Below are positions 230 through 3,617 of a DNA stretch of 4,119 nucleotides, one piece after another. Under the pieces are notes generated by a model, which was not told the DNA's origin, did no database searches, and worked only from the letters and a program-made list of their open reading frames with translations. The stretch's first letter is position 1. Each line of letters opens with the position of its first letter. The stretch comes from a virus. Lineage: Duplodnaviria > Heunggongvirae > Uroviricota > Caudoviricetes. Where the stretch lies: IMG/VR virus record IMGVR_UViG_2565956631_000001; one strand, written 5' to 3'. Position numbers and translations under genes: made by a program.

Positions 230-700
230 CTAAATCTCTCTGACCGTTCCGCCCGCTTCTTTGAATTTTGCAATCAGGCTGTCAGCCTTATGCTCGAACT
301 GACCATAACCAGCGCCCGGCAGCGAAGCCCAGATATTGCTGCAACGGTCGATTGCCTGGCGGATGTCACCGCGATCAATCATCGGCAAAGCGCCACGCTC
401 TTTAATCTGTTGCAGTGCCACAGCGTCCTGGCTTTTCGGAGAGAAGTCTTTCAGGCCAAGCTGCTTGCGGTAGGCATCCCACCAACGGGAAAGAAGCTGG
501 TAGCGTCCGGCGGCTGTTGATTTGAGTTTGGGGTTTAGCGTGACAAGTTTGCGAGGGTGATCGGAGTAATCAGTGAATAGCTCTCCGCCAACAATGACGT
601 CATAACCATGATTTCTGGTTTTCTGCCGTCCGTTATCAGTTCCCTCTGACCACGCCAGCATATCGAGGAACGCCTTACGTTGATTATTGATTTCCACCAT
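230..700 (-). CDS. R: Endolysin R (lambda-type lytic transglycosylase)
   Basis: 156-aa ORF starting [39 protein letters not shown]..., essentially the lambda R protein as I recall it. A GGAG Shine-Dalgarno lies about 8 nt upstream, and the start overlaps the 3' end of S as in lambda. Confidence 0.95.
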
Positions 701-1007
701 CTTCTACTCCGGCTTTTTTAGCAGCGAAGCGTTTGATAAGCGAACCAATCGAGTCAGTACCGATGTAGCCGATGAACACGCTCGTTATATAAGCGAGATT
801 GCTACTTAGTCCGGCGAAGTCGAGAAGGTCACGAATGAACCAGGCGATAATGGCGCACATCGTTGCGTCGATTACTGTTTTTGTAAACGCACCGCCATTA
901 TATCTGCCGCGAAGGTACGCCATTGCAAACGCAAGGATTGCCCCGATGCCTTGTTCCTTTGCCGCTAGAATGGCGGCTAACAGGTCATGTTTTTCTGGCA
1001 TCTTCAT
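684..1007 (-). CDS. S: Holin S, class I, with the dual-start MKM motif for the S107 antiholin and S105 holin
   Basis: 107-aa ORF starting [39 protein letters not shown]..., with hydrophobic transmembrane segments and a charged C-terminal tail. It matches lambda S as I recall it, and the two in-frame ATGs separated by a Lys codon are present. Confidence 0.95.
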
Positions 1008-1030
1008 GTCTTACCCCCAATAAGGGGATT
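1005..1030 (-). promoter_or_regulatory. S translation-initiation region: upstream stem-loop (CCCC-UUAUU-GGGGG), Shine-Dalgarno and the dual start codons
   Basis: Minus strand reads AAATCCCCTTATTGGGGGTAAGACATGAAGATGCC. The CCCC/GGGG inverted repeat immediately 5' of the start is in the position of the structure known in lambda to set the S107:S105 start ratio (established knowledge; folding not computed). Confidence 0.5.
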
Positions 1031-1120
1031 TGCTCTATTTAATTAGGAATAAGGTCGATTACTGATAGAACAAATCCAGGCTACTGTGTTTAGTAATCAG
1101 ATTTGTTCGTGACCGATATG

Positions 1121-1162
1121 CACGGGCAAAACGGCAGGAGGTTGTTAGCGCAACCTCATGCC
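1121..1162 (-). terminator. Hairpin with 3' GUUUUG tract upstream of S; terminator-like or pause element
   Basis: Minus-strand RNA: GGCAUGAGGUUG-CGCUAA-CAACCUCCUGCC followed by GUUUUGCCCGUG. The stem pairs 11 of 12 positions by eye. This segment is where similarity to lambda resumes, by recollection. Function not established. Confidence 0.35.
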
Positions 1163-1298
1163 ACCCGCTTTCACGAAGCCAGCCATTGCGCTGGTTTTCT
1201 TTTATGCAAAGCACACCGCACCGTAGCCACAGCGGATAAGGTGATTATTTTTGTCTATCTGGTATTTGGTTTGATGTGCTTTCAGAAAGGTCGTGATT

Positions 1299-1334
1299 AA
1301 AACGCAAAAAGCCCCGAGCTATTAACTCAGGGCT
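1299..1334 (-). terminator. Intrinsic (Rho-independent) terminator about 65 nt downstream of the pR' start; candidate functional equivalent of lambda tR'
   Basis: Minus-strand RNA: AGCCCUGAG-UUAAUAG-CUCGGGGCU, a 9-bp stem including one G-U wobble, followed by UUUUGCGUUUU. On the plus strand the same stem has a C-A mismatch and a weaker T-tract, so it is better formed in the minus orientation. Confidence 0.55.
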
Positions 1335-1356
1335 TTATTTAACGAGTGCATTTATC

Positions 1357-1398
1357 CATCGTTGAGTCAAATTTACCCAACTTTATTCAAAAAGTCAA
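1357..1398 (-). promoter_or_regulatory. Late promoter pR' with embedded Q-utilisation (qut) site and promoter-proximal pause element
   Basis: Minus strand reads TTGACT (1398..1393), a 17-nt spacer, TAAATT (1375..1370), then TGACTCAACGATGG. This matches the lambda pR'/qut region as I recall it, including the -10-like AACGAT in the initial transcribed region that induces the sigma70-dependent pause where Q loads. It lies immediately downstream of Q. Confidence 0.7.
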
Positions 1399-1440
1399 TA
1401 TCATGCTGTTAATATGTTGCCATCCGTGGCAATCATGCTG

Positions 1441-2064
1441 CTAACGCGTGACCGCGTTCAAAATGTTGTCTGCGATTGACTCTTCCTTGTGGCATTGCAC
1501 CACCAGAGCGTCATACAGCGGCTTAACAGTGCGTGACCAGGTGGGTTGAGTAAGGTTTGGGATTAGCATCGTTACAGCGCGATATGCTGCGCTTGCTGGC
1601 ATCCTTGAATAGCCGACACCTTTGCATCTTCCGCACTCTTTCTCGACAACTCTCCCCCACAGCTCTGTTTTGGCAATATCAACGGCCCGGCCAGTACCGT
1701 GACAATCTCTGCATCTTGCGCCCGGCGTCGCGGCACTACGGCAATAATCCGCATAAGCGAATGTTGCGAGCACTTGCAGTACCTTTGCCTTAGTATTTCC
1801 TTCGAGCTTTGCCACACCGCGGTATTTCCCCGATACCTTGTGTGCAAATTGCATCAGATAGTTGATAGCCTTTTGTTTGTCGTTCTGGCTGAGTTCGTGC
1901 TTACCACAGAATGCAGCCATTCCGAATCCGGCTTGTGATTGCGCCATCCCCATAGCAGCCATCACATCAGTACCGGAAAGAGAGTCAGAAGCCGTGGCCC
2001 GTGGTGAGTCGCTCATCATCGGGCTTTTTGGCGAATGAAATTTAGCTACGCTTTCGAGTCTCAT
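1441..2064 (-). CDS. Q: Late-gene antiterminator Q (lambda type)
   Basis: 207-aa ORF starting MRLESVAKFHSPKSPMMSDSPRATASDSLSG..., containing the Cys-rich zinc-binding motif CRDCHGTGR...CGRCKGVG. It matches lambda Q as I recall it. Shine-Dalgarno GAGGGGAAG lies upstream, and the start overlaps the stop of the upstream gene (ATGA). Confidence 0.95.
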   Translation of the reverse strand: MRLESVAKFHSPKSPMMSDSPRATASDSLSGTDVMAAMGMAQSQAGFGMAAFCGKHELSQNDKQKAINYLMQFAHKVSGKYRGVAKLEGNTKAKVLQVLATFAYADYCRSAATPGARCRDCHGTGRAVDIAKTELWGRVVEKECGRCKGVGYSRMPASAAYRAVTMLIPNLTQPTWSRTVKPLYDALVVQCHKEESIADNILNAVTR

Positions 2065-2249
2065 CGTCTTCCCCTCTTGCCCTGTTTGACCATCAGGACG
2101 CCGTTGACTATTACATGACGCTCGCCTTTGCTGTCTCGGTTGTACTTGAGCACTGTTCCTCTTGCGCAGGAAAGCATCCTTGCCACTTCGGTCTGATTGC
2201 CTCGTGTCTGGATAAGAAGCTCTGGTATCGTTTGAATTGTGGCGTTCAT
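2061..2249 (-). CDS. ninH: NinH-like small DNA-binding protein
   Basis: 62-aa ORF MNATIQTIPELLIQTRGNQTEVARMLSCARGTVLKYNRDSKGERHVIVNGVLMVKQGKRGRR. The core GNQTEVAR...RGTV.KY...IVN.VLMV resembles lambda NinH as I recall it and is helix-turn-helix-like. GGAG lies upstream; ATGA overlaps with both neighbours. Confidence 0.75.
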   Translation of the reverse strand: MNATIQTIPELLIQTRGNQTEVARMLSCARGTVLKYNRDSKGERHVIVNGVLMVKQGKRGRR

Positions 2250-2608
2250 GCGTTCTCCAGTTCGGTGATTTTTATTCCAAGCCTTCCGCCTGGTACTTTC
2301 ACGCCACGAATTACGCGAATGTCATCGAATTGCTCGTCGTCTTCCGCAAATCCGGCGTGGATAAGGGAGTCGAGTAAACCTTTCAGGATGTTGTCGAGGT
2401 CGCGGCGGCGGGAGTCTGGAACGTCTGCGATGACTTTGATGCGGAGTCGTGATTTGGTGAAAATGTCTAACTTAAGTTGGCGGATGATTTGCTGAACGTC
2501 TTTTCGGTATTTCTGGCCTTTATCGCTGATGTAGTATTGGCTTCCCCGTCTTCGCCAGTAGGTGTTCAGCGACGGCGGGTATGGAAGCACAAACTGATAT
2601 TCGTTCAT
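2246..2608 (-). CDS. rusA: RusA-family Holliday-junction resolvase
   Basis: 120-aa ORF starting MNEYQFVLPYPPSLNTYWRRRG..., with the RRRDLDN acidic motif and a C-terminal GGRL.I.I.E segment characteristic of RusA, which is 120 aa in E. coli. Strong AGGAGG Shine-Dalgarno upstream. Confidence 0.85.
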   Translation of the reverse strand: MNEYQFVLPYPPSLNTYWRRRGSQYYISDKGQKYRKDVQQIIRQLKLDIFTKSRLRIKVIADVPDSRRRDLDNILKGLLDSLIHAGFAEDDEQFDDIRVIRGVKVPGGRLGIKITELENA

Positions 2609-2895
2609 GGTTTAATCTTCCCCTCCTTCAGCAGTATCGCCTGCGTCCTGATCACGCCTTCGAGGTGGTAAAGTCTGGCGTCTTTGTTGTCGAGATTATG
2701 GGTGCGTCGGTCGATTTCATCGTGACACGCGCTACAAGCCCATGCGCCGATCAGGTCGTCAGGCTTCATCCCCGTTCCGCAAATTCCAGCCATCCGGTAA
2801 TGTGCCAGAACTGTAGTTTCAGGATTGCCATTGCATACGCCGTAAATACGTACCTGGCATTCTCTGCCGCGCGCTTCTTTGCGTAGATTAGCCAT
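2605..2895 (-). CDS. ybcO: YbcO-like DUF1364 protein (putative zinc-binding nuclease)
   Basis: 96-aa ORF MANLRKEARGRECQVRIYGVCNGNPETTVLAHYRMAGICGTGMKPDDLIGAWACSACHDEIDRR..., with Cys/His residues spaced for metal binding. It has the size and position (immediately upstream of rusA) of ybcO in the E. coli DLP12 prophage; the family assignment is from recollection. GGGAGG Shine-Dalgarno upstream. Confidence 0.7.
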   Translation of the reverse strand: MANLRKEARGRECQVRIYGVCNGNPETTVLAHYRMAGICGTGMKPDDLIGAWACSACHDEIDRRTHNLDNKDARLYHLEGVIRTQAILLKEGKIKP

Positions 2896-3617
2896 TAAGC
2901 AGCCTCCCCTGTTACTTTCAGCATTCCGTTATCGAGCAGCTTTCTGGTCAGCCACTGTTGGCCACGCCCGGTGATTTTTGTGGTGAACGATATCTGTATT
3001 CCGTGATTTGTGTTGACCGCTGTTTCTTTCACTGTGAAATAGCCGCGCTCCATATATTCCTGCATTGGCACATTTCTCCGGGAACCTGAAGCAATAAGGA
3101 TTTTGTGATCGCGCATCCACGCAAACAGTTTGTTTGGACCAATTCCAACAACCTTTGCAAAGTTTCCAATCAAAATTCCGCTGGCCTCGCCAACGCGATC
3201 GGCAAACTCAACTTTAGGTGCGGCAATTGCGAGCTGGTTTTCCAGTTGCATTTTCTGCTCAGCAAGATCAGCAGCAAGGCGCAACGCTTCTGGTAGCGTT
3301 TTGGGGATATTAACCGCAGCTTCTTCAAGCTCTCGCCAGCGGTCAACAAGGCGAGCGGTGAATTCCGGCGACAGCTGGGCTACAACGACAATACTGTCTC
3401 GCTTTCCTTGTTCGCCTTCGAATACATACACACAAAAACTTTGATTTAAGCCTAACCCATTGATTCTTCCACAATCCTCAATTTGAGGAAGCCGGATAAC
3501 ACCATTTTTAGCCAGCGTTTCGATGGTACGTTTCACATTGTCATGACGCTTACCTGTAAGCTCAGCGATTTCAATGCTTGTCATTTTGATGGCATTGCCA
3601 TTTATTAACTCATTCAT
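2895..3617 (-). CDS. Phage regulatory protein with N-terminal Rha domain and C-terminal KilA-C (antirepressor-type) domain; Roi-like
   Basis: 240-aa ORF. The N-terminus MTSIEIAELTGKRHDNVKRTIETL is typical of Rha-family DNA-binding domains. The C-terminus ...GNFAKVVGIGPNKLFAWMRDHKILI... is typical of the KilA-C/antirepressor domain. Shine-Dalgarno GAGGAAGAAG upstream; the start overlaps the ninF stop (ATGAATGA). Confidence 0.8.
   Translation of the reverse strand: MNELINGNAIKMTSIEIAELTGKRHDNVKRTIETLAKNGVIRLPQIEDCGRINGLGLNQSFCVYVFEGEQGKRDSIVVVAQLSPEFTARLVDRWRELEEAAVNIPKTLPEALRLAADLAEQKMQLENQLAIAAPKVEFADRVGEASGILIGNFAKVVGIGPNKLFAWMRDHKILIASGSRRNVPMQEYMERGYFTVKETAVNTNHGIQISFTTKITGRGQQWLTRKLLDNGMLKVTGEAA

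Follow-up and report, generated by a model that had tools for sequence, protein, structure and literature searches.

The interval between the antiterminator gene Q and the holin gene S in the stretch of DNA analyzed here (4,119 nucleotides of a Caudoviricetes virus, referred to as the window) is very probably the late-gene switch of a lambdoid phage of the HK140/HK620/HK97-like kind, present in the short-leader form first described for P22. This assignment starts from the observed anatomy of the sequence, its homologies, and the fold of a terminator together with its conservation, and nothing in the data contradicts it. That late promoters make short RNAs regulated by antitermination has been established since the 1970s for lambda, 21, phi80, 82 and P22 (PMC7547250). 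All genes of the window lie on the minus strand and follow each other from high to low coordinates in the order roi/antirepressor, a gp66-like ORF, rusA, ninH, Q, the gap under study, S, R and Rz, with just the start of Rz inside the window (Table 1). The top matches over the whole window were HK140, Kapi1, Gally, HK620 and HK022 with 95-97% identity, besides many E. coli prophages. Judged by these matches to HK140/HK620/HK022-type phages and E. coli prophages, the window comes from a typical HK97/HK620-like lambdoid phage or prophage.

Table 1. Features located in the window; positions are those of the 4,119-nucleotide stretch, and transcript positions refer to pR'.
Feature	Positions	Strand	Basis
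roi/antirepressor	2895-3617	-	
rusA	2246-2608	-	
ninH	2061-2249	-	
Q antiterminator gene, 207 aa	1441-2064	-	ORF, protein identity
Late promoter pR': -35 TTGACT (1398-1393), 17-bp spacer, -10 TAAATT (1375-1370)	1370-1398	-	Promoter scan, alignment
Initial transcribed region: predicted +1 at 1363, AACGAT at 1363-1358	1347-1363	-	Alignment, P22 annotation
Non-lambda block of 162 bp, P22/HK97-type leader cassette	1340-1179	-	blastn and alignments
Intrinsic terminator, tR'/t late equivalent	1299-1336	-	Terminator scan, fold, homology
Helix-bounded structured element, ~90 nt, just 3' of the terminator	1195-1288	-	RNAalifold, covariation
S-proximal leader block common to lambda (45015-45185)	1008-1178	-	98.8% identity
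Holin gene S, 107 aa, dual start MKM; opens the late operon	684-1007	-	ORF
R	230-700	-	

The interval from the Q stop to the S start (1440..1008, minus strand) was compared by blastn with the corresponding interval of lambda (NC_001416, 44510..45185). Two collinear lambda-matching blocks were obtained, one on the Q side (window 1440..1341, lambda 44510..44609; 93% identity, E 1.6e-39) and one on the S side (window 1178..1008, lambda 45015..45185; 98.8% identity, E 2.4e-87). Between the two blocks no significant similarity to lambda was detected in this search, and the 162 bp of the window (1340..1179) stand opposite 405 unrelated bp of lambda (44610..45014). Since flanks with E-values of 1e-39 and 1e-87 enclose the dissimilar block, a chance arrangement is implausible. 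Searching inside 1340-1179 for hidden lambda homology with a word size of 7 returned just chance-level 8-13-mers, and a partial MAFFT alignment of lambda tR' with the terminator of the window found no support by BLAST and was treated as analogy. The pairwise alignment thus bears out an earlier note on this DNA, which had described a non-lambda stretch between Q/pR' and S. The same holds for the lengths, as the note had given the interval as 433 bp and the one of lambda as about 240 bp longer; lambda has 676 bp here, a difference of 243 bp. The boundaries it had placed at 1356 and 1170 had to be shifted by ~15 and 8 bp to the actual ends of the block at 1340 and 1179, but the likeness to lambda does begin to erode at ~1355, with four mismatches between transcript positions +9 and +17.

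Directly upstream of the interval a Q protein of the lambda/P22 family is encoded, the family found in the lambda-type (type 1) Q switch. All of its residues are the same as in lambda Q (207/207, 100%), and 201/207 are shared with P22 gp23 (97%). A promoter scan of positions 950-1500 on both strands identified pR' as the sole sigma-70-like site. Between its -35 and -10 hexamers lies the Q-binding part of qut (~1392-1372, TTTTGAATAAAGTTGGGTAAA), which differs from lambda at two positions and is identical in P22 and HK022; homologous promoter and qut features are annotated in the records of HK140 and P22. Following lambda and the annotation of P22, the +1 position was set at 1363, the A of AACGAT, and the P22 record labels the homologous base 'P late RNA 5' nt'. 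The hexamer AACGAT at +1 to +6, a -10-like pause-inducing element, does not vary between lambda, P22 and the HK phages, and the sequence from +1 to +8 is identical to both lambda and P22. By analogy to lambda biochemistry, a sigma-70-dependent pause would be expected at +16/+17 (1348/1347). The two promoter hexamers and the pause element had been called lambda-like in the earlier note, and each was found where that note had placed it.

Within the 162-bp segment, past the pause site and ahead of the first late gene, lies an intrinsic terminator (1336-1299). The transcript is unstructured from +1 to +27 and then forms a stem-loop with a 13-bp stem (1336-1308, +28 to +56) followed by UUUUUGCGUUUU; the fold has a free energy of -23 kcal/mol and a z-score of -4.8. 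From this fold, release of the RNA is predicted at about +57 to +61, so that the Q-independent product would measure ~57-61 nt in comparison to 194 nt for lambda 6S RNA. The homologous hairpin of P22 is labelled 't late or tR'; antiterminated by gene 23 protein action' in the curated record BK000583, in which the homologous positions also carry 'P late or PR'', a qut-like site and the late RNA 5' nucleotide. In P22 the terminator annotation spans +31 to +59, and the record of Salmonella phage Emek marks the same hairpin as a rho-independent terminator. Among 95 unique viral-contig leaders, 22 sequence variants of the hairpin were counted, every one of which folds and is followed by an invariant U-tract; in the variant of ES18 and ST104, two consecutive pairs of the upper stem are altered on both sides in a compensatory manner. 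The function of the lambda leader is retained despite the replacement, because the incoming segment brings its own tR'-type terminator.

Some unusual copies of the terminator hairpin were observed in addition. In one IMG/VR contig (L111), it is present at the same place as an exact reverse-complement flip. The identical 28-nt hairpin GCCCTGAGTTAATAGCTCGGGGCTTTTT moreover recurs in unrelated phage contexts, namely in Hafnia phage Meifeng ahead of tRNA-Arg/tRNA-Thr and the holin gene (L013:701-736), and in Pantoea phage AH01 after the endolysin gene (L014:701-730).

For pausing, Q loading, antitermination with read-through and the RNA end point, we draw on the established biology of lambda and P22 and propose the following course of events. 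The promoter pR' would fire constitutively, and polymerase would pause at +16/+17 when sigma-70 re-binds the -10-like AACGAT. As long as Q is lacking, polymerase would resume transcription and terminate at the hairpin (+28 to +56) and its U-tract, freeing a leader RNA of ~57-61 nt. This RNA would be the counterpart of lambda 6S RNA, with no sequence likeness past +22. Once Q has accumulated, it would bind the qut DNA between -35 and -10, load onto the paused polymerase and make it terminator-resistant, and the Q-modified polymerase would transcribe on into S, R and Rz. The hairpin starts ~11 nt past the pause site, and loading of Q would therefore have to be finished before the hairpin emerges. 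As the arrangement in P22 is identical, such tight spacing can be argued to work.

This leader is not peculiar to the window. The whole 433-bp interval is collinear, with 94-98% identity, in HK140, HK544, ECP1, HK106, mEp234, Sf101 and HK542 as well as in mEpX1, HK022, mEp213, mEp043, mEpX2, HK97 and Salmonella phage Emek, and in the HK97/HK022/HK140/HK544/mEp/Sf101 leaders the element is effectively the same, the differences being point substitutions only. For HK022, HK97, HK140 and the mEp phages it is the standard leader, and it has a homologue in P22, an outcome that the earlier note had named as one that would refute its own view. The lineage of the segment, for which that note had suggested a search, was traced to P22/HK97/HK022-type lambdoid phages: the 162 bp are present in 99 phage records, including HK97, HK022, P22 and relatives of P22. 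The match to P22 covers 100% of the segment with 74.8% identity, and homology to the P22 t late and the leader downstream of it was found in matching position relative to +1. P22 further shares the Q family (97% at the amino acid level), an identical promoter, qut and pause element, a homologous terminator at the same distance from +1, and a homologous downstream leader up to the holin gene. It differs by ~25% nucleotide divergence 3' of the terminator, by compensatory changes in the helix-bounded element described below, and in the hairpin loop, which reads UUUAACC in P22 and UUAAUA in the window. The 162 bp are thus an already described mosaic variant, the previously annotated P22/HK97/HK022-type leader, and not a new insertion. 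Of 5426 complete E. coli genomes, 330 contain the segment, whereas the 405 bp of lambda were found at a coverage of at least 80% in 217 E. coli genomes, many of which are laboratory lysogens. The short leader is found no less often than that of lambda.

Compared with the pR'-qut-6S-tR' region of lambda, the switch logic is the same. Q is identical, promoter, qut and pause element agree to 93% through +22, and the last 171 bp before S are shared. From +23 on, the leader of the window is unrelated to the leader RNA of lambda, which measures 194 nt (44588-44781) and ends with tR' at 44781; no homology to lambda 6S was detected by blastn after lambda 44609, that is, beyond the pause region. Lambda has orf-64 and ~230 further bp that are missing from the window, and does not contain the helix-bounded element. 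Relative to lambda, a module reaching from +23 to ~170 bp upstream of S has been exchanged in mosaic fashion.

Similar exchanges are evident in other phages, as lambda, HK446, IME10, HK75, HK633/HK620 and the window each hold their own cassette in this slot, and the late leader is a recombination hot-spot. The 405 bp of lambda (44610-45014; L001) are themselves a patchwork with sub-blocks 1-172, 178-259, 249-321 and 327-405 that occur separately in other phages. Positions 1-172, which correspond exactly to the stretch from +23 to the end of tR', stand alone in HK446, mEp506 and phiv205-1, and positions 1-259 occur in IME10; this 6S body (1-172) is thus also present in IME10 and is missing from the window-type leader. 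Other sub-blocks of 75-80 bp recur in phages of Klebsiella, Salmonella and Shigella, in P7/D6 and in HK75. Conversely, 24 of the 95 unique contigs with the leader of the window lack a lambda-type pR'. ES18 and ST104 share with the window the terminator, as the compensated upper-stem variant, and the downstream leader with the helix-bounded element, but have another late activator and another promoter region; the cassette has therefore been exchanged independently of the Q/qut module. Terminator and downstream leader form a portable unit that is also used behind other types of Q and promoter. The Q/qut/pause module accordingly has its natural 3' edge at the junction with lambda, at +22/+23.

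The slot also holds longer material in some phages. In HK633 (L137:198-806), and identically in HK620, an apparently non-coding insert of 609 bp lies between the late terminator and the helix-bounded element. Its core of ~370 bp is shared, with 80-90% identity, by 124 records of phages whose hosts include Klebsiella, Salmonella, Cronobacter, Aeromonas and Vibrio. No tRNA was found in the 609 bp, and a quick Rfam scan yielded just sub-threshold tmRNA-like matches.

The earlier note had read the difference from lambda as a segmental replacement in the slot where other lambdoid phages carry morons such as stx and tRNAs. Mosaicism and the variability of the slot stand, and the slot does take up cargo elsewhere, such as tRNA-Arg and tRNA-Thr in Hafnia phage Meifeng, tRNAs in phages L and Sf6 (PMC8022706), and the 609-bp insert of HK620/HK633. 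That the 162 bp are recent foreign, moron-like cargo specific to the phage of the window is nevertheless very improbable. The window is shorter than lambda at this place and not longer, no tRNA was detected in the window and no second promoter in 950-1500, the only ORF (51 aa) is not conserved, and the same segment occurs in the 99 phage records that include the classical HK97, HK022 and P22. A gene with its own promoter and/or terminator that is inserted in comparison to relatives, as the term moron implies, is thus not seen in the window, and the idea of a moron slot holds for the locus at large but not here. One might alternatively regard the window as a deletion derivative of the lambda leader that has lost ~243 bp, since the interval is shorter by 243 bp and both flanks are lambda-like. 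The probability of this explanation is close to negligible, as the 162 bp show no similarity to any part of lambda 44610-45014 and are homologous to P22 throughout, and the 405 bp of lambda are a patchwork themselves.

Downstream of the terminator, RNAalifold applied to eight divergent leaders revealed a structured element bounded by an outer helix (1282-1273 with 1217-1208) and containing an inner helix (1243-1240 with 1222-1219). Counting pairs on 16 distinct sequences, 91% of the cells were paired compared to 26-49% with the partners slid, and none of 500 shuffles matched the observed covariation. Five of the ten pairs of the outer helix vary on both sides, one position showing AU, CG, GU and UA. 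In its 5' half the loop is rich in A and C and poor in G (three G in 40 nt in the window; 18 C versus 11 G in P22), and the 3' half contains the conserved motif GUGG(C/A)UACGG. A covariance model (R1) was built from the leader sequences and used to search leaders and alternative cassettes. It recognized the element in every P22/HK-type leader and gave two further matches, to a divergent copy in HK633 (44 bits) and to a weak one in Hafnia phage Meifeng (22 bits), both located between the inserted material and the holin gene and both with extra compensatory helix variants and the loop motif UGG(C/A)UACGG. With the same model the element was absent from lambda, HK446, IME10 and HK75. An Rfam search of the whole window at permissive E-values gave nothing relevant, the sole match being snoU85 at chance level (15 bits, E 0.47).

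The element might be a cis-acting, previously undescribed RNA of the late leader that tightens or tunes expression of the lysis genes, a possibility that we put forward tentatively and regard as somewhat doubtful. An RNA helix is supported by the covariation. In every case, HK633 and Meifeng included, the element is situated ahead of the lysis genes and past the terminator or inserted cargo, and in several contigs homology stops exactly at the closure of the helix. Guesses as to its role include Rho loading as a backup to the terminator for polymerases without Q, a determinant of processing or stability, and a protein-binding site. The A/C-rich, G-poor 5' half of the loop resembles rut sites, but a closing helix is atypical for these. 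A role in processing would agree with RNase III processing sites in the lambda late leader, which Daniels et al. reportedly described in 1988 (cited in PMC7547250). The conservation of GUGG(C/A)UACGG suggests a specific ligand and is explained neither by Rho loading nor by processing or stability, and lambda, HK446, IME10 and HK75 manage without the element. Another possible role concerns the ~60-nt RNA from pR' to tR', which besides being a by-product of the switch could act in trans as an Hfq-dependent sRNA in lysogens. In Stx phages the pR'-tR' transcript is processed into StxS, an Hfq-binding sRNA with a demonstrated trans-acting function, and antiterminated phage promoters have been proposed by the authors of that work as a general source of sRNAs (PMC7547250). 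StxS likewise derives from a short constitutive RNA of an antiterminated late promoter ended by tR' (PMC7547250), but its Q type and sequence are unlike those of the window. With 27 unstructured nt at its 5' end ahead of a terminator hairpin and U-tail, the RNA has the usual layout of an sRNA, and from +1 to +27 no base differs between the HK phages of E. coli and P22, though identity further downstream is ~75%. This conservation is equally well explained by the needs of pausing and Q loading, ES18 and ST104 possess the terminator but not the 5' part, and for lambda 6S RNA 50 years have not brought any function to light (PMC7547250). We consider a trans-acting sRNA unlikely and the weaker alternative to a cis-regulatory leader element.

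Several minor features were noted in and around the S-proximal block, which is also conserved in P22 and ES18 as well as in Emek and ST104, two phages with a different holin. The block includes a stem-loop just 5' of the dual start of S and a conserved hairpin followed by GUUUUG (1168-1122). The latter, which corresponds to lambda ~45025-45071 and lies on the minus strand, consists of GGCAxGAGG and CCUCCUGCC within GCGGGU and GCCCGU (-25.8 kcal/mol) and is common to lambda, the HK phages, P22 and ES18, and also to Emek/ST104. Possible roles are secondary termination and processing of the late leader. Pair 5 of its GGCAxGAGG/CCUCxUGCC stem (1143-1158 region) is G-C in lambda, A-U in P22 and ES18, U·C in the window and HK140, G·A in HK022 and HK97, and A·C in Emek, a pattern that looks like recombinants between compensated variants. 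At the junction with the lambda homology, a small conserved hairpin (CCAGC..GCUGG, 1175-1198) varies in its loop among relatives and keeps its stem. On the plus strand it is followed by TTTTCTTTT and reads as an intrinsic terminator for antisense transcription. The promoter scan of 950-1500 revealed neither a plus-strand nor an internal promoter to go with this site, and an antisense RNA terminated here is therefore unsupported.

Regarding coding capacity, a 51-aa ORF with a GTG start (1059-1214, minus strand) is listed as 'hypothetical protein' in the records of HK140, ECP1, mEp234 and Sf101. As HK97 has a frameshift in it and the frame is not kept in P22, ES18 and ST104, it was rejected as a gene, and the 'hypothetical protein' of several GenBank records is probably an annotation artefact. 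An ORF of 65 aa with a TTG start on the plus strand (1103-1300) overlaps the covarying RNA helix. Scanning the window for tRNA and tmRNA genes gave none.

Taken as it stands, the late leader of the window matters little and adds another example of mosaicism, which is well known in lambdoid phages. In natural phages and prophages, the lambda-type Q/pR' module is commonly paired with the short P22-type leader and not with the 6S leader of lambda. The junction at +22/+23, located right after the Q-loading region, delimits the minimal qut module in nature, and the exchange of cassettes independently of the Q type is consistent with a Q-modified polymerase to which the identity of the terminator makes no difference. 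Experiments might be worthwhile only for the covarying leader element.
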